A stretch of 64,000 bases of DNA from Candidatus Levyibacteriota bacterium (GTDB lineage Bacteria; Patescibacteriota; Microgenomatia; Levybacterales; UBA12049). Shown here in pieces: positions 2,535 through 57,803 of this stretch (positions within the stretch are counted from its first letter, which is position 1; each line of letters begins with the position of its first letter). Where the stretch lies: contig JAUSEW010000027.1 of NCBI GenBank assembly GCA_030651475.1, positions 173,614 through 237,613 of the forward strand, written 5' to 3'. The translations under genes were made by a program, and so were the position numbers. The notes beneath the pieces were generated by a model. It made no database searches, was not told the origin of the DNA, and saw only the letters and a list, made by a program, of their open reading frames with translations.

Positions 2535-3271
2535 CTATATTTATTTATCCCGTTTCTTAATTGCAATGCGGCTGTTCTTGGGTTTTCTGCAAAGATTATC
2601 CCACGGGAGGAATTTATTATCAAGCCCGACTTATCTTTCCTTAGCCCTGCTTTCAAGGTTTTTTCCAAATCTCCGCCTTGCGCACCAATGCCTGGAACCA
2701 AAAAATAACGGTCCTTAAAAATTTTTCTCAAAATTCCAAGGTCTTCAGGATATGTCGCTGGGGCAATTATTCCAAAATTTTCTTCGTTCCATTTTGATAC
2801 TTTTTCCGCCATTACCTGAAAAAAAGGTTTTCCATTAACATTTATATCCTGAAAATCTGAAGCGGAAGGATTAGATGAGCGAATGTATAAGAAAGAATAT
2901 TTATCTTTGTATGAAAGAAAGGGGATAACGCCGTCTTTTCCTGTAAAGATGTGAAGAGTTACCGAATCTGCTTTCCAAAAATCAAAAACAGATTTTGCGT
3001 ACATCTCTGCCGTATGTCCTACCGATCCTCGCTTTGCGTCAAGAATAATTGGTATGTTTTTGGGTATATGTTGAATTGTTTTTTGTAGAGATTTTAATCC
3101 AGTAATACCATCTGCTTCATAAAAAGCAGTATCAGGTTTGTACGCACAAACAAGATCGTAAGTTTGGTCAATGACTCTTTTATTTAATGAAAAATCACTG
3201 CTGTCTAAGCCAACACAAAGAAGGGAATTATTTTTCTTTATCGCTTTTTCAAGTTTTTGTATAAATGTCAT
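2531..3271 (-). CDS. pyrF: orotidine-5'-phosphate decarboxylase. Start taken at MTFIQKL, giving an ATGA overlap with the pyrD stop
   Basis: N-terminal LLCVGLD motif and a K-rich active-site region typical of OMP decarboxylase. Operon context. Confidence 0.8.
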   Translation of the reverse strand: MTFIQKLEKAIKKNNSLLCVGLDSSDFSLNKRVIDQTYDLVCAYKPDTAFYEADGITGLKSLQKTIQHIPKNIPIILDAKRGSVGHTAEMYAKSVFDFWKADSVTLHIFTGKDGVIPFLSYKDKYSFLYIRSSNPSASDFQDINVNGKPFFQVMAEKVSKWNEENFGIIAPATYPEDLGILRKIFKDRYFLVPGIGAQGGDLEKTLKAGLRKDKSGLIINSSRGIIFAENPRTAALQLRNGINKYR

Positions 3272-4341
3272 TTTATGTTTAATTTTTCGAAAATCTCGTA
3301 CGCAAGATAGGGGTTCCACATCGCTCCTGTTGCGGATTGTACCAAATCTGCTCCTGCTTTTCGATAATCAAAAAAATCTTTTGGGGTCATAACTCCGCCT
3401 ATTCCAACAATTTCATAATTGTATTTATTTCCTTTCTTTATTTTTTGTAGTTTTTCGACCATTTCAATTCCAGCCCATTTAATCGCACTTCCGCAAACTC
3501 CGCTCTTTAGCCTATTTTTGCCAGGAAGTGCTTGATTGCCATCTTCGTCTACGATTTCGACCTGCAAAGTATTTATCGCAGCTATCGCATTTGCGTATTT
3601 ATTTGCAATTTTTGCCAAAACCTTAACATCTTTAAGATCTTTATAGTATCCAACTTTCAATATCAGAGGCGTATCGCCAATAGCTTTTCTTATTGCCTGG
3701 CATACTTTTTCAGTTACTTCTAAGTTGTAGCAGACCAGACCTTCGTTTCCAATATTAGGACACGATAAATTAGCTTCGAGAATTTTTGCCTCTGTTTCTT
3801 TTGCAAGTTTGGCTGCAATAGCAAAATCTTCTATAAATTCCTCTTGGGTTTGGTTTGGTTTTACCGTGCCCATAAAACTCAATATTAACAGTTGTCCGTT
3901 TCTTTCATATCTTATTGCTTCTTTTACATCTTGTTGCCAAATCGCGGGTTTTTTTGACGGAACGCCAAAAGAATTCGTTATCGTAAGCTGTTTCTTGTTT
4001 GCCTTGCTTTGAACGATAAGCCGTGGTGTTTTGTAGGGAAATAATTTTTTTGGCGCTTTTACGTACATTACGTTTGGATAGGGATGGCAAGGGAAGATAT
4101 CTGCTCTGACTGTTTTGTATGTTGAAACTGAAAAACCAAAATCAAAAGATCCTTTTATAAATTTACTATTCAAAAGAGGTCCTGCAGGAATACCAAAAGG
4201 AAGATTAACAGGAAAACCTAGAAAATTATATCGGGGTTTTGATTTCTTAAAAAGAGGTTTTTTTAATTTGCTAAGCCCAATTGGACCTTGTTTGAAATTA
4301 CCATCATATGTTTTGTGAATATCATATAAAAGGGAATCCAT
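3268..4341 (-). CDS. pyrD: dihydroorotate dehydrogenase (class 1-like catalytic subunit)
   Basis: NLSCPN active-site motif. GIGGV FMN-binding region near the C-terminus. TIM-barrel DHODH pattern. Confidence 0.85.
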   Translation of the reverse strand: MDSLLYDIHKTYDGNFKQGPIGLSKLKKPLFKKSKPRYNFLGFPVNLPFGIPAGPLLNSKFIKGSFDFGFSVSTYKTVRADIFPCHPYPNVMYVKAPKKLFPYKTPRLIVQSKANKKQLTITNSFGVPSKKPAIWQQDVKEAIRYERNGQLLILSFMGTVKPNQTQEEFIEDFAIAAKLAKETEAKILEANLSCPNIGNEGLVCYNLEVTEKVCQAIRKAIGDTPLILKVGYYKDLKDVKVLAKIANKYANAIAAINTLQVEIVDEDGNQALPGKNRLKSGVCGSAIKWAGIEMVEKLQKIKKGNKYNYEIVGIGGVMTPKDFFDYRKAGADLVQSATGAMWNPYLAYEIFEKLNIK

Positions 4342-4346
4342 AAATA

Positions 4347-7019
<2,673 letters not shown>

Positions 7020-7024
7020 ATTTT

Positions 7025-8587
7025 TTACGCGCCAAACGCTTTTTTAAAGTCTAAAATTGATTTTTGCATTTCCTTAATTATTTCTTCAGAAGGTTTTTGT
7101 CCTGTCGAAAGAGACTCAATTATTTTCGGAAAGCTTCTTTTTACAAAGTCATGATATTCTGTTTCAAATTTTTCGAAAAGCTCAAGTTTTATGTCGTCCA
7201 AATACCCATTTGCAACTGCAAAAATGCTTAAAATTTCTAAACTTTCCTCAAGAGGATGATATTGTGGCTGTTTTAGGATTTCGATTGTTTTTTTCCCTCT
7301 TTCCAGCTGGGCTAATGTCGCAGGATCCAGTTCGCTTCCGAATTGAGCAAAAGCCGCCAATTCGTTATATTGCGCAAGCTCCAGTTTCATTTTTCCCGAA
7401 ACAGACTTAATTGCAGGCGTTTGGGCTGCTCCTCCAACTCTTGAAACAGAACTGCCTACATTGATTGCGGGTCTTATGCCATTATTAAATAAATCCTGTT
7501 GCAAATATATTTGCCCATCAGTAATAGAGATAACGTTAGTTGGAATATATGCGGAGATATCGTTGGCTTGAGTTTCTATAATTGGAAGCGCGGTTATAGA
7601 TCCGCCTCCGTTTTCTTTATTTAGCTTAACAGCTCTTTCCAAAAGTCTGCTGTGAAGATAGAATATATCTCCCGGATAAGCTTCTCTTCCTGCGGGACGT
7701 TTCAGAACCAGAGAGATTTGTCTATACGCCCACGCATGCTTAGTGAGGTCGTCATAAACAACTAGGACGTCTTTCCCCTTTTCCATAAAGTATTCGGCGA
7801 TTGCAGATCCGGCATATGGCGCAAGATATTGTAAGGACGGAGAGTCAGAGGCTCCTGCAGCAACAATTATTGAATACTCTAATGCACCCTCTTGGTCCAG
7901 CTTATCTATTACTTGGGCAATAGTGCTTTGTTTTTGTCCGATAGCAACATACACGCAGATTACTGGTTTTTGTTTTTTATTTCTTTCAGCCATAGGCTGA
8001 TCGGCCTTTGGCCGAGGTTTTTGATTGATTATGGTATCAATCGCGATAGCTGTTTTTCCGGTTTGTCTGTCGCCAATAATGAGCTCCCGTTGTCCTCGTC
8101 CTATTGGGATCAATGCATCTATCGCTTTTATTCCTGTTTTTAACGGTGTACTTACGGGTTCTCTGTCTACTACGCCTGCTGCAATTTTCTCAAGAGGCAT
8201 ATCTTTTCCCTTCTTAATCGTTGATTTGCCGTCCAGAGGTTCTCCTAAAGGATTTACAACTCTTCCGAGTATGTCATCGGATACGTTTATGCTTAGTATT
8301 TTCCCGGTTGTCTTTACAGTATCTCCCTCTTTGATGTCGTCGCTTTTACCCAGGGTCAATATTGCGACATTGTCTTCGTCTAGATTCAGCACCACGCCCA
8401 TCTTATTCTTATCGAAAGACACAAGCTCCCCCATAAATGTTTGGGATAATCCGGAAGCAACGATAACTCCGTCTGTATTTTTTTCGACTATTCCGACGTT
8501 TTGGGTTTTGGCGCTTCCCTGAAACATTGCCAGTCTTTCTTCGAGCTGTTTGATAATTGTATCAGCGTCAATCATATGCAAGACCAA
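7025..8587 (-). CDS. atpA: F-type ATP synthase alpha subunit
   Basis: Walker A GDRQTGKTAIA. Conserved SAYIPTNVISITDGQI region. Confidence 0.95.
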   Translation of the reverse strand: MVLHMIDADTIIKQLEERLAMFQGSAKTQNVGIVEKNTDGVIVASGLSQTFMGELVSFDKNKMGVVLNLDEDNVAILTLGKSDDIKEGDTVKTTGKILSINVSDDILGRVVNPLGEPLDGKSTIKKGKDMPLEKIAAGVVDREPVSTPLKTGIKAIDALIPIGRGQRELIIGDRQTGKTAIAIDTIINQKPRPKADQPMAERNKKQKPVICVYVAIGQKQSTIAQVIDKLDQEGALEYSIIVAAGASDSPSLQYLAPYAGSAIAEYFMEKGKDVLVVYDDLTKHAWAYRQISLVLKRPAGREAYPGDIFYLHSRLLERAVKLNKENGGGSITALPIIETQANDISAYIPTNVISITDGQIYLQQDLFNNGIRPAINVGSSVSRVGGAAQTPAIKSVSGKMKLELAQYNELAAFAQFGSELDPATLAQLERGKKTIEILKQPQYHPLEESLEILSIFAVANGYLDDIKLELFEKFETEYHDFVKRSFPKIIESLSTGQKPSEEIIKEMQKSILDFKKAFGA

Positions 8588-8918
8588 TATGGGTAGCGAT
8601 ATCTTCTAGGGTATTTTTTAAATCATGTTCATAAACAATGTCGTTATTTATAATCCTAACTCCGGCAATAAGGCTTGGGTCTTCTTTGTAGATAATTTTT
8701 TTACCTCTAAACATTTTATCAAATATCTTTTTATCAGTATACATGAAAGGCAAGTTTATTATAACCGTGTTTTCCTTCTCGTAACTTTTTAATACTTTTA
8801 CATATGCTTTCAAATCTTTTCTTGTCAATAATCTCGCTATCTTATTTACCCTAATGAGGTTTAGCTTTTTATGTACATAACTTAATAGAACCAGTTTTTT
8901 TATCTTCTTGATGTCCAT
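8568..8918 (-). CDS. atpH: F-type ATP synthase delta (OSCP) subunit, truncated to about 116 aa
   Basis: Operon position between atpF and atpA. C-terminal LIAGVRIINNDIVYEHDLKNTLEDI matches the delta C-terminal consensus. The N-terminal half of a typical delta is absent. Confidence 0.6.
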   Translation of the reverse strand: MDIKKIKKLVLLSYVHKKLNLIRVNKIARLLTRKDLKAYVKVLKSYEKENTVIINLPFMYTDKKIFDKMFRGKKIIYKEDPSLIAGVRIINNDIVYEHDLKNTLEDIATHIGLAYD

Positions 8919-8930
8919 AACTTATTAATA

Positions 8931-9428
8931 TTAGATTTTCATTTCTTTTAGAGCCTTTTTCAGAATTTCTTTTTGCTCTTTTTCAGAGAAAAGCTGCTCC
9001 AATGATTTTTTTAGAAATTCAATTGCAACTTTACTTACTGTTAAAGTTAATCTTTTTTCTGTTTCAATGGCTTCTTTTTTAATCTGCAAAGATGCATCGG
9101 CAAAAATTTTTTCAGTTTGTTTTTTAGAAATTTCTTCAATTTCCTTAGCCGTTTCTGTTGCATGGCTCTTGGCATCATCGATAATCTTTTTCGCATAGGC
9201 TTCTGCTCTTTTCAGAACTGCTTTTTCCTCCGAGCTAGCCTTCTCCAAAAGAATGCGCACCTCTTCGTTCTTCCTAACACCTTCCTTAATTGCGTCTTCT
9301 CTTTTTTTCAACAATTCCAATATCGGTTTATAAAGGAACCTCTTAAGAACGTAAAGAATAATTAAGAAATTAATGACTTGAGCAGCCAAAAATACAGGAT
9401 CAAGTCCGAAATTTTTGATAATTTCCAT
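8931..9428 (-). CDS. atpF: F-type ATP synthase subunit b
   Basis: Single N-terminal TM helix followed by a long charged coiled coil. Operon position. Confidence 0.85.
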   Translation of the reverse strand: MEIIKNFGLDPVFLAAQVINFLIILYVLKRFLYKPILELLKKREDAIKEGVRKNEEVRILLEKASSEEKAVLKRAEAYAKKIIDDAKSHATETAKEIEEISKKQTEKIFADASLQIKKEAIETEKRLTLTVSKVAIEFLKKSLEQLFSEKEQKEILKKALKEMKI

Positions 9429-9466
9429 ATTGAATAAGAATATCTAATCTTTAAATAAGAACAAAC

Positions 9467-10416
<950 letters not shown>

Positions 10417-36769: not shown

Positions 36770-37462
36770 TTATATTCCGAGAAGGAAAAAGTCAATGGAT
36801 TGGATAAGCGATAGTGACGAGCTTCCTGTTTTTTGAGCAAGGTCTATATAATAAAGTTTCTGGTATATACTTTTCAATTGTTCTTTGGAAAAATAACTTG
36901 CCTGCTTTTTCAATTTACCTTCTTGCCAGGGTGCCAAACGCGATAGTTCCTCTATGGGAGTTTTTGCTTTACTTGATACTGCTATTAAAAATCTAAATTG
37001 TCGGACTAACATAAAAAGTAGAATTTCCGGTTCAGAAGCCTGCAGTGCCTGATGGAATAAATCAATAGCTCTTACGCCGATATTGGGTTTTAATGAATCT
37101 AGGAATAAGAAAATTGCTTGAGGAATCTTGAAAGTTTTTACAAGCGCATTTTTAAATAATGATAGTGTCCTTTTGGAAATTTCTTTTCTCTCCCAAAAAA
37201 ATAATTTCGCATCTTCTTCATGCTTACTTACGAACGCTATGATTTCTTTGGCGTTAACATCAAGTTTTCCAGCTTTGGATAAAAAGTTTTCAATAAATAT
37301 AGTTTTTGTGTCGTTAAAAAGCGCAGACCCTTCTATGTTTTGGGCAAAATCAGATAAAGCTGCTTCCGCTTCCAAAGCAACAAATTCTTTGATATTTTCT
37401 TTTTGCTCCTGAAGATATTTTCTGGATGCCACAATGTCATCTCCGTGAATGATGGTAATCAT
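36770..37462 (-). CDS. holA: possible DNA polymerase III delta subunit (HolA), short form
   Basis: N-terminal MITIIHGDD and overall helical AAA+-lid-like pattern. Weak similarity only. Confidence 0.35.
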   Translation of the reverse strand: MITIIHGDDIVASRKYLQEQKENIKEFVALEAEAALSDFAQNIEGSALFNDTKTIFIENFLSKAGKLDVNAKEIIAFVSKHEEDAKLFFWERKEISKRTLSLFKNALVKTFKIPQAIFLFLDSLKPNIGVRAIDLFHQALQASEPEILLFMLVRQFRFLIAVSSKAKTPIEELSRLAPWQEGKLKKQASYFSKEQLKSIYQKLYYIDLAQKTGSSSLSLIQSIDFFLLGI

Positions 37463-37833
37463 ATTTTGCTCTTGTATTCTTCAAATAATTTGTTTACGAG
37501 CGAACCGATGTGCCGGCTTCTATTTCTGTGCGGGAGAAGCGCGCCTGAAAAGTTTTTTGGAATATGTAATAGTTCATGGATTAACACTTTTTTCTTTTCG
37601 TCATCGCTAAGTTTATCAAAATGACTAGACAAAACCTCAATTACGTATGCCGGTTTTATATTTAGGACTGTTTGGAAAATTTTAGGGAACGACCAAATTC
37701 TGGCATACGATCTTGATTTGGAACCATTTGTTCTGTAGCAAAATATTCTGGAGCAATTAACATGGGGGAAATCCAAAACGCTGATTAAAGCTTTGATTAA
37801 TTTTCGTACATCTTTTGCCTCCATCCACTCCAT
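37459..37833 (-). CDS. YgjP/DUF45-like predicted zinc-dependent hydrolase. Start at MEWMEAK to avoid overlap
   Basis: VLIHELLHIPKNFSGALLPH resembles the HExxHxxxxNHS motif of DUF45/YgjP. Confidence 0.4.
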   Translation of the reverse strand: MEWMEAKDVRKLIKALISVLDFPHVNCSRIFCYRTNGSKSRSYARIWSFPKIFQTVLNIKPAYVIEVLSSHFDKLSDDEKKKVLIHELLHIPKNFSGALLPHRNRSRHIGSLVNKLFEEYKSKI

Positions 37834-37837
37834 ATTT

Positions 37838-38353
37838 TTATGTATGTTTGTCTGCAACGTATGATGCTCCGTAAGCTTCCGGTTTGGTCTTGGCAACGAA
37901 TCCATTTCCCGTTACCATTCCTACCACTTCTTTTATCATATCACGGGTATCTCCGTGTTCTCCAACATCAATATGAATCTCAAGATTATAACGCGGAGAG
38001 TGTCCATTTAGACTTTTTTTAAGAAGCGGAACAAAACCCGTCGCAAATGTAAGAGAACTCATTGTTTCGGCGTAAATTTTTTCTCTTAAACTATGTATGT
38101 CCGACATCTCATTGCTTTTCCAAAAATATTTCCCTCCGAATCCTTGGCGATGTACCAAAACCGCAGTTACAAGATTAATATGAGTTCTGGTTTTTCCAAA
38201 CCCGTTTTTCTCTCTCGAATCCGTTCCAATAACGAGACTGTACGTCGCATTCGGCTCTTCCTCAAGAAATGTCTTTATTATTTTTATTACCTCTTCTGTC
38301 TCCAAAACTCCGTGAGTAAAACTTTGCAATAAATTCTCTGAAGGTTTATCCAT
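37838..38353 (-). CDS. hypothetical protein, possibly YkuK/DUF458-like RNase H-fold
   Basis: About 171 aa with an LVIGTDSRE motif. Assignment is tentative. Confidence 0.3.
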   Translation of the reverse strand: MDKPSENLLQSFTHGVLETEEVIKIIKTFLEEEPNATYSLVIGTDSREKNGFGKTRTHINLVTAVLVHRQGFGGKYFWKSNEMSDIHSLREKIYAETMSSLTFATGFVPLLKKSLNGHSPRYNLEIHIDVGEHGDTRDMIKEVVGMVTGNGFVAKTKPEAYGASYVADKHT

Positions 38354-53299: not shown

Positions 53300-54289
53300 T
53301 TAAGGTAAGAATTTAAGCGCGTTAGGAAGATTGGGGGATATATAGGTGGTTATTGTATCTCGCAATTCTTTGAGAGATTTCGATAACATTATTTTTTCCC
53401 GTAAGGAAACTGCGCCGGAAAAATTATTGACATACGTCTTGCAAAATTTTTTCAAAGTAGCAGGATTCTTGCTTTCTCCCCATGTTTTTGAAAATAAATC
53501 AATGTGTTTTAGATAAAGATTTAATCTTTCTTTGACCACAATATCTTCAAGCTTCACCGAAGAATTAAATAACCAAGGATTTGCGAAAATTCCCGTACCG
53601 ATCATATAACCATCGCATCCATATAGCTTATGTTTTTCCTTAACTTCTGCAAGAGACTTAATATCGCCATTCCCTATGATGAAAGTTTTCGGAGCAATTT
53701 TATTTCTTAATTCCATAATCTTCGGCATCAACTCCCAATGGGCCGGTACTTTGGATAATTCCCGTACGGTTCGTAAATGAATACTAATCGCAGATAAATC
53801 TTGCTTAAGGAGAAAACCAATCCATTCTTCGATGTCTTCAGCATGAAAACCTATGCGCGTTTTGACACTTACAGGCAGTCCGTCTGCGCCTTTCTTGGCC
53901 GCCTGAATAATTTTTTGGGCAAGATTTGGATTTTTGATTAATCCGGCACAAGCTCCATCCCTAATAACTGCTCTGTCCGGACAGCCCATATTTATATCTA
54001 TTCCTGCAAAACCAAGTTTTCTTATATATTGCGCAACTTTACGAAAACTGTCCGGCTTAACTCCCCAAATTTGCGCGACAATAGGCTGTTCATTGCGAAC
54101 ATATTTCAAACGTTCTGCTACTACCTTTTTCCCTGCAGATAATAATCCTTCGCAATTTACGAATTCGGTAAAAAACACATCGGGCCGTCCGATACTATTA
54201 ATTATTTGGCGGAAAACCGTATCGGTTACTCCGTCCATCGGCGCCAAAACAGTAAAAGGTTTAGAAAGCTTCTTCCAAAAATTTCCCAT
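53300..54289 (-). CDS. tRNA-dihydrouridine synthase. Start at MGNFWKK
   Basis: FTVLAPMDGVTDTVFRQII. Catalytic Cys in INMGCP. FMN-binding TIM barrel. Confidence 0.85.
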   Translation of the reverse strand: MGNFWKKLSKPFTVLAPMDGVTDTVFRQIINSIGRPDVFFTEFVNCEGLLSAGKKVVAERLKYVRNEQPIVAQIWGVKPDSFRKVAQYIRKLGFAGIDINMGCPDRAVIRDGACAGLIKNPNLAQKIIQAAKKGADGLPVSVKTRIGFHAEDIEEWIGFLLKQDLSAISIHLRTVRELSKVPAHWELMPKIMELRNKIAPKTFIIGNGDIKSLAEVKEKHKLYGCDGYMIGTGIFANPWLFNSSVKLEDIVVKERLNLYLKHIDLFSKTWGESKNPATLKKFCKTYVNNFSGAVSLREKIMLSKSLKELRDTITTYISPNLPNALKFLP

Positions 54290-54317: not shown

Positions 54318-55835
54318 ATGAGATTTATTGATAATTTCCTGGACAGAATAACCATGTACCGCCTGGTACTATATTATCTCATCGCGCTTCTTTTTAACGC
54401 CGCTGTGCTTAGTCTTTTCGGAATTCTATCTTTCTCTGTATTCTCAATTATTTTTTCGGTAGCAATTCTTGTAACCGTATCCTGGATAACCAATAAAATA
54501 TTTGCCAAAATATTTAATGCGCCGACCAATGTTGAATCCGTTTATATCTCTGCCCTTATCCTGACGCTTATCATCACCCCCAGTCAATCCATTCAAGGAG
54601 CTGCATATCTAGGGCTGGCTGGAGTTTTGGCAATGGCGTCAAAATATATTCTGGCAATTAATAAAAAACATATCTTTAATCCAGTGGCAATTGCGGTTTT
54701 CTTAACAGCAGTAGGAACTAACCAATTCGCTTCTTGGTGGGTAGGAAGCTTCGCGATGATACCTTTAACTATTTTAGGAGGATTTCTTATTCTTAAAAAA
54801 GTTCAAAAGGTAAATCTTGCTTTTAGTTTTTTGGCAACGACACTTTTCGTAATCATTACTTTTGCCATTTTTAACGGGAGTAATCTGCTTGCAATTCTTA
54901 ATCAAGCGCTTTTGCATTCAGCGCTTCTTTTCTTTGCATTTGTGATGCTTATTGAACCTTCAACAACTCCTCCGACAAAAGGATTACAGGTTTGGTATGG
55001 AATTATGGTGGGATTATTGTTTTCTCCGCAAGTACATTTCGGAAGCTTGTATTTCACCCCTGAAATGGCATTACTAACTGGCAATATTTTTTCTTACATT
55101 GTCAGCCCCAAACAAAAACTTATTCTTTTCCTTAAAGAAAAAATTCAAATTGCTCCTGATATTTTTGATTTCGTATTTACGCCAAAAAAGAAACTCTCGT
55201 TTGTACCCGGACAGTATGCGGAATGGACATTTGAACATTCGCGCACCGATTCAAGAGGAAACAGAAGATACTTTACCATAGCGTCTTCACCTACGGAAAA
55301 TGATTTGAGATTCGGACTAAAGTTTTATGCCCAAGGAAGCAGTTTCAAGAACGCACTGGTAAATATTAAACCTAATACTCCTGTAGTTGCCTCACAACTT
55401 GCTGGCGATTTCACTTTGCCAAAAGACCCGAAACAAAAACTTGTTTTTATAGCCGGCGGGATTGGAATAACTCCATTCCGAAGTATAATCAAATATCTTA
55501 TTGATGTTCACGAAAAACGTGATATTGTCCTTTTGTATTCAGATAAGCAAGTTTCAGAGATCGTTTACAAAGACGTTTTCGACCAAGCGCAAATGGAGCT
55601 TGGGATAAAAACAATTTATGCTTTAACAAGTGAAAATTTGCTCCCGCAAGGTTGGCTGGGAAAAGTCGGAAGAATAGATGGGGAAATGATACGAGGGGAA
55701 ATACCTGATTTTCAGGAACGGATGTTCTACTTGTCCGGTCCGCATTCAATGGTTAACGCGTTTGAAAAAACTTTACTCGATATGGGAATTTTCAAAAGTA
55801 AAATAAAAACCGATTTTTTCCCCGGCTACGCATAG
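54318..55835 (+). CDS. fusion protein with an N-terminal RnfD/NqrB-like polytopic membrane domain and a C-terminal ferredoxin-NADP-reductase-like FAD/NAD(P)-binding domain
   Basis: Membrane part of about 330 aa with an FNPVA motif. C-terminal RRYFTIASSP (RxYS FAD motif), GGIGITPFRS (NAD(P) motif), and a terminal aromatic FFPGYA. Confidence 0.6.
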   Translation: MRFIDNFLDRITMYRLVLYYLIALLFNAAVLSLFGILSFSVFSIIFSVAILVTVSWITNKIFAKIFNAPTNVESVYISALILTLIITPSQSIQGAAYLGLAGVLAMASKYILAINKKHIFNPVAIAVFLTAVGTNQFASWWVGSFAMIPLTILGGFLILKKVQKVNLAFSFLATTLFVIITFAIFNGSNLLAILNQALLHSALLFFAFVMLIEPSTTPPTKGLQVWYGIMVGLLFSPQVHFGSLYFTPEMALLTGNIFSYIVSPKQKLILFLKEKIQIAPDIFDFVFTPKKKLSFVPGQYAEWTFEHSRTDSRGNRRYFTIASSPTENDLRFGLKFYAQGSSFKNALVNIKPNTPVVASQLAGDFTLPKDPKQKLVFIAGGIGITPFRSIIKYLIDVHEKRDIVLLYSDKQVSEIVYKDVFDQAQMELGIKTIYALTSENLLPQGWLGKVGRIDGEMIRGEIPDFQERMFYLSGPHSMVNAFEKTLLDMGIFKSKIKTDFFPGYA

Positions 55836-55849
55836 TTCTACTATGGAAT

Positions 55850-56479
55850 TTATTCAAGAGAAATATCAATACCTCTTAAAAGATCGTTGAATTTGTCTTT
55901 AGCTATTTTTTCCCGCTCTTTTTCGTCTGGAGCCAATTTTATTGGCAAATCACTACCCACCTCAAAGAACTTAAAGGTTCTTAAAAAAGCAGGATGTGCT
56001 TCGGGAGTTACATGGGATTGGATGTTGCCTTCTACGACTTGCAATATTGTTATCTTCATCTCCCTAATCCTTTTCATGAATTCTTCTTGCGTCATTGGCG
56101 GCTTAAGCATTCCTTTTCTTGAAAATCCCTTTGGCAAAAAAGGTGATTTAGTTCTATCACGCATCCAAGCAAAAACAACTAAAGCGTGACGAGTTGCTTC
56201 TCTTGTCTCCAAATCAACATCTGTATGGGATTGCTTTTGATCATCGTAGAGAACGGCTGATCCTTCTTCTGCTCTCGTTAGGTAAGATTGAAAAGTGTAG
56301 TCACGAAAATATTCTTTTGCTGGCCCAGGCTTACGAATTACACCTTTATTAAAAAGTTCTAGGAGAGCATTCGTCTGTTTTACAACAATCCAAGGAGATT
56401 TCTCAAACTCCCTATAACCAATTATTGGCTGAAACTCCGGGGATTGAGGCGCAGAAAATCTTCTTTCAAATTCTAGCAT
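55850..56479 (-). CDS. hypothetical protein C (209 aa) in the elevated-GC block
   Basis: ORF with its own upstream TTGACA element and the 14-bp palindrome. No motif. Confidence 0.4.
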   Translation of the reverse strand: MLEFERRFSAPQSPEFQPIIGYREFEKSPWIVVKQTNALLELFNKGVIRKPGPAKEYFRDYTFQSYLTRAEEGSAVLYDDQKQSHTDVDLETREATRHALVVFAWMRDRTKSPFLPKGFSRKGMLKPPMTQEEFMKRIREMKITILQVVEGNIQSHVTPEAHPAFLRTFKFFEVGSDLPIKLAPDEKEREKIAKDKFNDLLRGIDISLE

Positions 56480-56581
56480 ATTGTTTTAACAACGTGCCTT
56501 ATGTATTGCGCAATACTATATTATAAAAAATTATCTGTCAAGGTAAAAACTTCGGAAAAAACCGCATGGCGGAAATGTAAT

Positions 56582-57286
56582 TTATTTCGTAAAACTATCT
56601 GATCCTACAACCATAGTTTTAAATTCCGTTAGAGTGTCTATTGCCCCGCTAAGAGACCTAAACCCAACTACGCTTGATCGAACCGGATCAATTTGAGATA
56701 TTCCCCTGATAGGTAACTCTCTAGGCCCCTCCGGGAATTTCCCCCTTCTCCACAAAGGATTTGAATTTTCATTAAACGCCAAAGTTGCAGATGCCAGGAC
56801 TTCCCCTCCCAATGCGACAAGCGGAATTATAGTCCAGCCAATTCTTGAAAGCGGAACTTTAGAGGCTATTATGCCAAATTCCACTTTATTCCTTTTGCTT
56901 TCGTCCATATACCATCGTTCTTCTTCTCTCGGATTTTGCCAGTGGATGGAAGTTGTTCCCGAAGGCCACATTTTTATTTCTATTGCCAAATCTCCATAAG
57001 AACCACTCCATTTCAGGCAACATTGATTAGATTCGCTCCTTTGGATGTATTTCTTGCCGAGACCGAATAATTTTCTAGACAAAAACTGACCTGTTGGTAA
57101 AATATCCTGATTGCTTATCTGTTCTTTTAAGCGATAGTCTTCTATATATACTATCTTATTTCCTGCTGTTTCTACCATAGGCGTTAAATTGGATTTATAC
57201 TTGCGGGGCTTTATTTGTATCTGTTTGCTTCCATAACCTAAAAATCCTACTGGCAAGTGTCCTACTTTGTTCACCCGTAAAAACAC
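56582..57286 (-). CDS. hypothetical protein B. The ORF overlaps protein A by 92 nt in another frame. An alternative start at MVETAGNK (57178) removes the overlap
   Basis: ORF. A hydrophobic segment IIPLVALGGEVLASATLAF is present. No motif. Confidence 0.35.
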   Translation of the reverse strand: MFLRVNKVGHLPVGFLGYGSKQIQIKPRKYKSNLTPMVETAGNKIVYIEDYRLKEQISNQDILPTGQFLSRKLFGLGKKYIQRSESNQCCLKWSGSYGDLAIEIKMWPSGTTSIHWQNPREEERWYMDESKRNKVEFGIIASKVPLSRIGWTIIPLVALGGEVLASATLAFNENSNPLWRRGKFPEGPRELPIRGISQIDPVRSSVVGFRSLSGAIDTLTEFKTMVVGSDSFTK

Positions 57287-57803
57287 TCTCGCCTAAAGGC
57301 CGTACTTTTATATCTGGGCGTATTTTTTCTCCGGTTGCATACGACACGTGTTCGTCTTTATTGTAGCTTGGCGGATAAACAATCATACGATTAATAGCAA
57401 TTACCACTTTATTTTCTCCTTCAGGACGCTTCGTAGCAACAACTTCGCTTAAGAAAGACTCTGTAGTTTCCGAACGTACAGCCTCACGTTCACGTTCCGG
57501 AAGTGCTTCCCATTTAGGACAAATATATACATTGGCTTCTTTGGTTCTATGGTATTTTTGTAAATATATAGCATGCCTGCTTTCTTCGTCCACTAGATAT
57601 GGCGTCCTTATCGCAGGACCCTCTTGAGTCCTTTCCATTAGGGCAATCATGCTATGTACGAAGTATTCGAAATCAAGAGGAGTGAGTTCTGTTTTCCTAA
57701 GTAAAATTATGCAATCTGCTTCTAATCTTTCCTTGGCCCTTCCAGTTGCCGGCTCAAAACGCATAGCGGATGGCCCCCGCCTAATCTCTGCTGAAGTTGT
57801 CAT
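57195..57803 (-). CDS. hypothetical protein A (202 aa)
   Basis: ORF that is GC-richer than its surroundings. No motif. Confidence 0.35.
   Translation of the reverse strand: MTTSAEIRRGPSAMRFEPATGRAKERLEADCIILLRKTELTPLDFEYFVHSMIALMERTQEGPAIRTPYLVDEESRHAIYLQKYHRTKEANVYICPKWEALPEREREAVRSETTESFLSEVVATKRPEGENKVVIAINRMIVYPPSYNKDEHVSYATGEKIRPDIKVRPLGESVFTGEQSRTLASRIFRLWKQTDTNKAPQV

Follow-up and report, generated by a model that had tools for sequence, protein, structure and literature searches.

Patescibacteria, the bacteria of the candidate phyla radiation (CPR), are regarded as obligate fermenters whose membranes carry hardly any redox machinery. The locus analysed here raises the question of what such an organism does with a gene that fuses a membrane domain of the RnfD/NqrB type to a ferredoxin-NADP-reductase (FNR)-type FAD/NAD(P)H module. 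The gene lies at positions 54318-55835 of the plus strand in a stretch of 64,000 nucleotides (64 kb; hereafter the window) from Candidatus Levyibacteriota bacterium. By sequence, fold and phylogeny, its product belongs to the Nqr/Rnf-like system, which Méheust et al. 2021 defined by bioinformatics in eLife (PMC8238504) and which was taken up again in mSystems in 2024 (PMC11334425), so that the architecture itself is not new. We propose, with a probability of roughly 65%, that its protein serves as the membrane subunit of a flavin-based exporter of the Nqr/Rnf-like kind, which would carry electrons across the membrane. What the window adds is that the gene persists under selection in lineages in which it is unlinked from apbE and FMN_bind, the genes for the flavin transferase and the flavinylated partner.

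The fusion gene and its two domains

The gene is an uninterrupted reading frame of 505 codons plus a stop, with no internal stop in its translation and no sign in the frame of a frameshift or of a joining of two open reading frames (ORFs). Full-length homologues of about 505 residues share 57-81% identity with the window protein, and the same length and architecture in more than 100 homologues among the matches listed show that the fusion is not an artefact. The first-pass annotation, which had been made from the letters alone, was thus right to read a single polypeptide, and an artefact of two ORFs split by a stop codon is ruled out. Homologues begin at the ATG at 54318, and residues 1-12 (MRFIDNFLDRIT) are kept across the family (D5, L8, I11 and T12 at ≥90%) and are also encoded 5' of a shorter gene call in the relative L086. 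A longer ORF with a TTG start at 53934, taken from a mechanical ORF list, was rejected because it runs antisense through the adjacent Dus (tRNA-dihydrouridine synthase) gene and because homologues begin at the ATG. The G+C content of the fusion gene region (~37-39%) matches the remainder of the window. An intact, real gene that fuses an RnfD/NqrB-like membrane domain to an FNR-type FAD/NAD(P)H module is therefore confirmed, and the three motifs quoted for it at the outset (FNPVA, RRYFTIASSP and GGIGITPFRS) were each located in the translation. Its features are as follows, with the evidence in brackets.

54318..55835, plus strand: complete fusion gene, 505 codons plus stop (translation, homologues of ~505 amino acids, full-length AlphaFold model, ratio of nonsynonymous to synonymous substitution rates, dN/dS)
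54318..55112, plus strand: membrane domain, residues 1-265, ten helical segments, RnfD/NqrB fold without the flavinylation loop (Pfam PF03116, PDB profile, hhalign, Foldseek, count of Lys and Arg)
54675..54689, plus strand: FNPVA, residues 120-124, at the cytoplasmic start of helix 5 (F120, N121 and P122 invariant; aligned with FNP of RsxD/RnfD)
54732..54746, plus strand: SWWVG, residues 139-143, short outer-face loop with W140 and W141 invariant (hhalign gap, invariant columns, topology count)
54951..54974, plus strand: IEPSTTPP, residues 212-219, family consensus TEPLTTPP, counterpart of RnfD TDPVT (E213, P214, T216 and P218 invariant)
55119..55403, plus strand: FAD-binding beta-barrel, residues ~268-362 (model strands at 268-362, weak FAD_binding_6 match, NCBIfam match over 273-501, Foldseek)
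55263-55292, plus strand: RRYFTIASSP, residues 316-325 (flavin motif at residues 317-320 as R-Y-F-T)
55437..55832, plus strand: NAD(P)H-binding Rossmann sub-domain, residues ~374-505 (PF00175, PDB matches to NqrF, invariant residues)
55455-55484, plus strand: GGIGITPFRS, residues 380-389, with GGxGxxP at 380-386 (motif scan)

The membrane domain was recognised by several independent comparisons. The Pfam model NQR2_RnfD_RnfE (PF03116) matches residues 143-259 with 27.3 bits (E 2.9e-6; cut-off 27.7), and a precomputed PF03116 match is present in most homologues. A profile built from 33 N-terminal domains matches RnfD alone in the whole PDB (8ahx_D, E 3.7e-6), and hhalign aligns residues 12-258 with residues 16-334 of E. 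coli RsxD at 91.9% probability over 237 columns. Because Foldseek with the full-length AlphaFold model (predicted local distance difference test score, pLDDT, 87.1; predicted template modelling score, pTM, 0.80) returned FNR-type matches only, residues 1-265 were modelled apart (pLDDT 87.7, pTM 0.86); with this model, RnfD chains (template modelling score, TM-score, 0.69-0.73) and NqrB chains (0.56-0.63) were the only matches at E ≤ 0.01, and urea transporters and channels came next at a non-significant E of about 2. Since the PDB profile, hhalign and the Foldseek search with the 1-265 model agree, the weak Pfam call is firmly backed, and the RnfD/NqrB-like assignment of the membrane part holds against one to an unrelated transporter family.

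Counting Lys and Arg residues gave 15 in the loops assigned inside versus 0 in those assigned outside, therefore placing both termini and the FNR module in the cytoplasm (N-in/C-in) and the SWW loop outside. The hallmark RnfD motifs are kept, both FNP and [D/E]P-x-T (EPSTTPP in the window protein), and E73, K109 and E213 are conserved polar or acidic residues embedded in the membrane. According to hhalign, ~80 residues of RsxD (from roughly 139 to 216, GISQATPLD among them) are missing from the window protein, where the SWW loop takes their place. GISQATPLD is the flavinylation site, carrying the covalent-FMN threonine, of RnfD-type proteins (literature cited in PMC8238504 and PMC11334425). 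The conserved Thr or Ser for covalent FMN that the first-pass annotation suggested looking for is thus absent: the loop that carries it is deleted, and no flavinylation-type (ApbE-type) motif occurs in the window protein. The protein also contains no cysteine, therefore Fe-S clusters and c-type heme are impossible and flavins are the only plausible cofactors.

The C-terminal half is a complete FNR module, as had been claimed from the sequence. Pfam NAD_binding_1 (PF00175) matches residues 377-483 with 50.5 bits (cut-off 22), and FAD_binding_6 matches residues 272-354 weakly, with 16.4 bits under a cut-off of 21.1. NCBIfam reductase models cover both sub-domains, the best being a flavohemoprotein model over residues 273-501 (E 1.5e-23). 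Sequence matches in the PDB were to flavohemoglobin and to the NqrF FAD domain (NqrF at E 8e-12), and Foldseek with the full-length model found flavohemoglobin, the NqrF FAD domain and b5 reductase at E 1e-13 to 1e-17. The superfamily signatures R-x-[YF]-[ST] and GGxGxxP are both present; the former appears as R-Y-F-T within RRYFTIASSP, which we take to be the RxY[ST]-type flavin motif of the FNR family. Invariant residues of the Rossmann part are G380, G381, G383, T385, P386, D499, F501 and G503. By analogy with NqrF and FNR, the aromatic residue of the conserved C-terminal DFFPG[YF]A would be expected to stack on the FAD.

Relatives, operon partners and the orphan locus

A protein search gave about 7,800 clusters at 90% identity among 8,000 scored candidates, and the window protein is 57-61% identical over its full length to hundreds of proteins with the PF03116 plus PF00175 architecture. 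The 120 matches listed have about 476-523 residues, nearly all at least 491, and come mostly from Patescibacteria; the N-terminal domain alone yields 365 clusters at 50% identity (E ≤ 1e-30). A scan of species-representative genomes found the gene in at least 443 of them, and the best 80 of these loci, over which all neighbourhood counts below were taken, span Patescibacteria, Chloroflexota (Ktedonobacteria), Mesorhizobium/Kaistia, Agreia and Spirochaetota. In databases the fusion proteins (e.g. P0003, P0040 and P0076) go under the names 'RnfABCDGE type electron transport complex subunit D' (NCBI) and 'ferredoxin-NADP reductase/RnfD'.

The first long contig inspected carries an ApbE gene and an FMN_bind gene 5' of the fusion gene. 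Hidden Markov models (HMMs) were built from these two proteins and run on all ORFs of the 80 loci. The order FMN_bind, apbE, fusion gene on a single strand was found in 64 of the 80 loci, and both partners in another arrangement in 2. One partner alone was found in 4 loci and neither in 7 where 2.5-10 kb upstream is present; the remaining 3 are too truncated to judge. Pfam confirms the FMN_bind and apbE neighbours in L001 and L003. The FMN_bind partner has a hydrophobic anchor at its N-terminus, then a long Pro/Thr/Ser linker and the FMN_bind domain, and 53 of 71 partner proteins carry a flavinylation-type motif, most often D[IV][IV]SGAT. In L007 (9395-9955) and L011 (6776-7288), FMN_bind immediately precedes the fusion gene but apbE is absent from the surrounding 7-10 kb, which shows that in some genomes the three genes need not stay together. 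The fusion gene is thus the third gene of an FMN_bind-apbE-fusion operon in most relatives and belongs to a two-subunit complex in the published model, so the idea of a minimal single-gene device is not supported, and the other description offered at first, a divergent NQR/RNF remnant, is essentially the literature's own name for the family.

The window gene itself is an orphan. Pfam scans of all 63 called genes of the window found no rnf, nqr, apbE or FMN_bind gene, and bear out the first-pass annotation in that no other respiratory-chain gene occurs among the 63 ORFs. The Dus gene (53300-54289, minus strand; Pfam Dus, 171.7 bits) and the fusion gene diverge, with ~28 nt between their start codons, and this arrangement is kept in L083 and L086. 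The two closest lineages, those of P0003 (77% identity; L083/L084) and P0007 (69% identity; L086), likewise have Dus on the minus and the fusion gene on the plus strand. No consensus promoter was seen in the 28-nt gap, promoter and terminator counts around the gene are near the shuffled expectation, and no Shine-Dalgarno sequence is evident at the start of the fusion gene; judging from the sequence here, its mRNA may be leaderless or nearly so.

A neighbour-joining (NJ) tree places the window clade, nested, beside L001, L003, L004, L007 and L009, all of which have at least FMN_bind (L007 lacks apbE). The window lineage forms a monophyletic orphan clade with P0003 and P0007, and a second orphan clade and scattered orphans lie outside it. 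The orphan gene is not decaying: dN/dS between the window gene and those of L083 and L086 is 0.14-0.16 overall, 0.16-0.21 in the membrane domain and 0.10-0.12 in the FNR module, which shows purifying selection with both domains constrained. Of 79 columns that are conserved at ≥90% in linked members, 76 are unchanged in the orphan clade, including W140 and W141, with no lineage-specific remodelling. No alternative conserved partner common to the orphan loci was found beside them. At one of these loci (L056, 7002-7490, minus strand), a membrane-anchored Cupredoxin_1 protein adjoins the orphan RnfD-FNR gene and has SDSDSGAT, a motif of the ApbE type, just behind its anchor; in that clade this protein could serve as a different extracytosolic partner.

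Proposed electron export weighed against other roles

We propose that the cytoplasmic FNR module would oxidise NAD(P)H and reduce its own FAD, and that electrons would then cross the bilayer through the ten-helix RnfD/NqrB-type domain, which is predicted to hold a non-covalent flavin. They would leave at the outer face to an FMN attached covalently by ApbE to the small tethered FMN_bind protein, a homologue of NqrC/RnfG, and this protein would hand them on to an extracytosolic acceptor. We infer each of these transfers, the flavin within the membrane, the direction of flow and the physiological acceptor. The SWWVG loop would serve as the docking site for the FMN of the partner, in line with section 9 of PMC11334425. 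The same architecture and the same mechanism have been proposed before (PMC8238504 section 13; PMC11334425 section 9): the published model is a two-subunit complex plus flavin transferase, and PMC11334425 gives an AlphaFold-multimer model of the Ktedonobacter racemifer complex, noting as well that the membrane subunit is without the flavinylated Thr and that the FMN of the partner may sample the non-covalent site. Our analysis arrived independently at this architecture, at the missing loop and at the linkage within an operon; to these it adds the topology from Lys and Arg counts, the lack of Cys and the evidence of selection.

The comparison with known systems places the window protein closest to this family. 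It shares with it the N-terminal PF03116-type membrane domain and the cytosolic, C-terminal PF00175 domain in an NqrF-like architecture, the loss of the flavinylation Thr and a home in the CPR, and it is orthologous to cluster-embedded members, with 57-61% identity to operon-embedded ones and a position nested among them. Méheust et al. counted 127 clusters, most of them from Actinobacteria and the candidate phyla radiation, and a few of them beside VIT1 iron transporters (PMC8238504). The window gene differs in lying outside a flavinylation gene cluster, which the definition in PMC8238504 requires, and in being divergently placed beside Dus; the flavinylation cluster context is missing from the 64-kb window and present in 64 of 80 orthologous loci. 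To RnfD and NqrB (8ahx_D, 9eri_D, 7xk3_B, E. coli RsxD) the protein is alike in its ten-helix fold (TM-score 0.56-0.73), in the FNP and [D/E]P-x-T motifs and in conserved Ser and Lys positions. Unlike them, it lacks the outer loop of ~80 residues between helices 5 and 6 that carries the covalent-FMN Thr, its FNR module is fused, and the other five Rnf/Nqr subunits are not alongside in the window. With the FAD/NADH domain of NqrF, flavohemoglobin, cytochrome b5 reductase and Fre, it shares the FAD beta-barrel and Rossmann fold with GGxGxxP and R-x-[YF]-[ST]; it differs from these reductases in having no ferredoxin-type 2Fe-2S domain or Cys and in being tethered to a polytopic flavin-type membrane domain.

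Two further systems resemble it in design. NOX and ferric reductases (FRD), such as Streptococcus pneumoniae NOX (8qq1, 8qt6), likewise combine a transmembrane electron-transfer domain with a cytoplasmic FNR-type dehydrogenase domain behind it, which draws electrons from NAD(P)H for an acceptor outside, and the NOX dehydrogenase domain is a Foldseek match of the window protein. Their membrane domains are unrelated, however: NOX has six helices and two b-hemes, whereas the window protein has the RnfD fold, with no Cys and no evident membrane-embedded pair of His ligands, so that flavins are expected. Extracellular electron transfer (EET) of the Listeria type (Ndh2, EetA/B, PplA, FmnB) is similar at the family level, in that an ApbE-type transferase flavinylates a tethered FMN_bind relay. 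There, the flavinylated extracytosolic FMN_bind protein relays NADH-derived electrons outward (PMC8238504, PMC9973259). Listeria-type EET differs in using a quinone pool and other membrane components, and no quinone step is implied for the window protein.

Several observations weigh against a flavinylated partner and the exporter built on it. Across the 64 kb, the ApbE and FMN_bind HMMs match no window ORF of ≥50 amino acids, and the strict motif D..[ST]GA[ST] occurs in none of these ORFs. The partners were likewise not found within 8-10 kb in L083/L084 and L086 (contigs ≤14 kb), and 7 of the 80 other species loci are orphans like the window gene. To these can be added that the Pfam RnfD score is marginally under its gathering cut-off, that no experimental work on the family was found in the literature searched, and that the mechanism is accordingly a prediction. 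The missing partners, the Dus-linked orphan synteny in three lineage members (69-100% identity), the recurrence of orphan loci in other clades and the persistence of purifying selection would all fit a protein that works in this lineage without ApbE or a flavinylated partner, passing electrons through its own non-covalent flavins to free flavin, quinone, Fe(III) chelates or O2, diffusible or host-derived. The window lineage and the other orphan clades would then hold a self-sufficient flavin-only transmembrane NAD(P)H oxidoreductase that would reduce such acceptors at the cell surface, a non-heme counterpart of NOX and ferric reductases in an organism lacking a respiratory chain. We regard this as unlikely: the window covers 64 kb of a genome, the partners may sit elsewhere in it, the genes are dispersible as L007 and L011 show, and the orphan clade keeps the family-conserved columns, the outer-face SWW loop among them. 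Because of this dispersal and the full conservation of the outer face, partners elsewhere in the genome, which we assume, are more likely than stand-alone use.

A role in ion pumping, in which NAD(P)H oxidation would be coupled to Na+ or H+ translocation and a minimal pump would feed the F-type ATPase, seems to us highly improbable. Its attractions are a fold common to subunits of the Na+-pumping Rnf and Nqr complexes, the conserved membrane-embedded residues E73, K109 and E213 and the F1Fo operon in the window. RnfA/E, NqrD/E, the Fe-S centres and the covalent FMN of the pumping cycle were not found, however, by Pfam scans of the window, hhalign and the Cys count. Outward flow of electrons from cytoplasmic NAD(P)H, moreover, would dissipate the membrane potential by itself rather than build it, so that the export proposed here would be depolarising. 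The ATPase operon is ~44 kb distant and shows no linkage that is conserved, and the first-pass suggestion that it made an ion-motive role relevant is not supported. Equally remote is the case for a genuine RnfD of a conventional Rnf complex, or for a transporter of the urea- or ammonium-channel kind with an FNR domain (e.g. for flavin uptake and reduction), to which the NCBI annotation as 'RnfABCDGE type electron transport complex subunit D' and the distant, non-significant Foldseek similarity to urea transporters might point. No rnfA/B/C/E/G gene occurs in the window, and neither these nor other nqr subunits are among the recurrent neighbours of the 80 loci, whose conserved neighbours are FMN_bind and apbE. 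With the companion subunits missing and the flavinylated Thr that defines RnfD deleted, a true Rnf subunit was excluded. That the gene is so closely tied, within one operon, to those for a flavin transferase and a flavinylated redox protein argues for electron transfer rather than solute transport.

If the gene does encode an exporter subunit, the complex would be among the few means by which CPR bacteria could shed reducing equivalents or run redox chemistry at the surface or the host interface; it would let a fermentative Patescibacteria cell re-oxidise NAD(P)H or supply reducing power outside, for example for iron reduction. The family is large and may matter for the physiology of the CPR, to which the orphan context adds a small twist. 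Its members are routinely misnamed 'RnfD' although no other rnf gene stands with them, and reconstructions of patescibacterial metabolism are likely to report 'Rnf complexes' wrongly as a result.

Neighbouring genes in relatives and in the window

The neighbourhood census of the 80 loci was also searched for a terminal acceptor, and the ABC exporters, two-component systems and few metal transporters that it returned are not decisive. Within 5 kb of the operon in loci L003-L082, a MacB-like ABC ATPase was found in 22 loci, a histidine kinase in 21 and an OmpR-type response regulator in 16, followed by an HlyD-like adaptor (12), a P-type ATPase (6), Nramp (4) and VIT1 (4). Such recurrent neighbours suggest that the operon may be regulated in connection with the envelope or with metals.

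The rest of the window is the housekeeping of a small genome, with genes for pyrimidine and purine synthesis, GatCAB, DnaE, UvrB/C, enolase, MurT/GatD and others. The F1Fo ATPase operon occupies 4347-10416 on the minus strand. Beside it, at 3271-4341 (minus strand), lies a gene for a dihydroorotate dehydrogenase of 357 amino acids, of which an N-terminal region of ~100 residues is poorly covered by the Pfam model; no quinone-linked chain is visible in this organism. At 55850-57803 (minus strand) are three consecutive ORFs of 209, 234 and 202 amino acids, the last two overlapping by ~90 nt, with no Pfam or PHROGs match. In L083 the fusion gene is followed by two ORFs alike in size and placement, which lack a Pfam match as well, and in L086 by none. 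The segment that separates the fusion gene from the holin_4_2/CofD/SecG block thus has the look of a variable insert. At 37462-38353 (minus strand), an ORF with a PhageMetallopep domain and an RNaseH_like ORF overlap slightly and adjoin the gene for the delta subunit of DNA polymerase III (holA-like).

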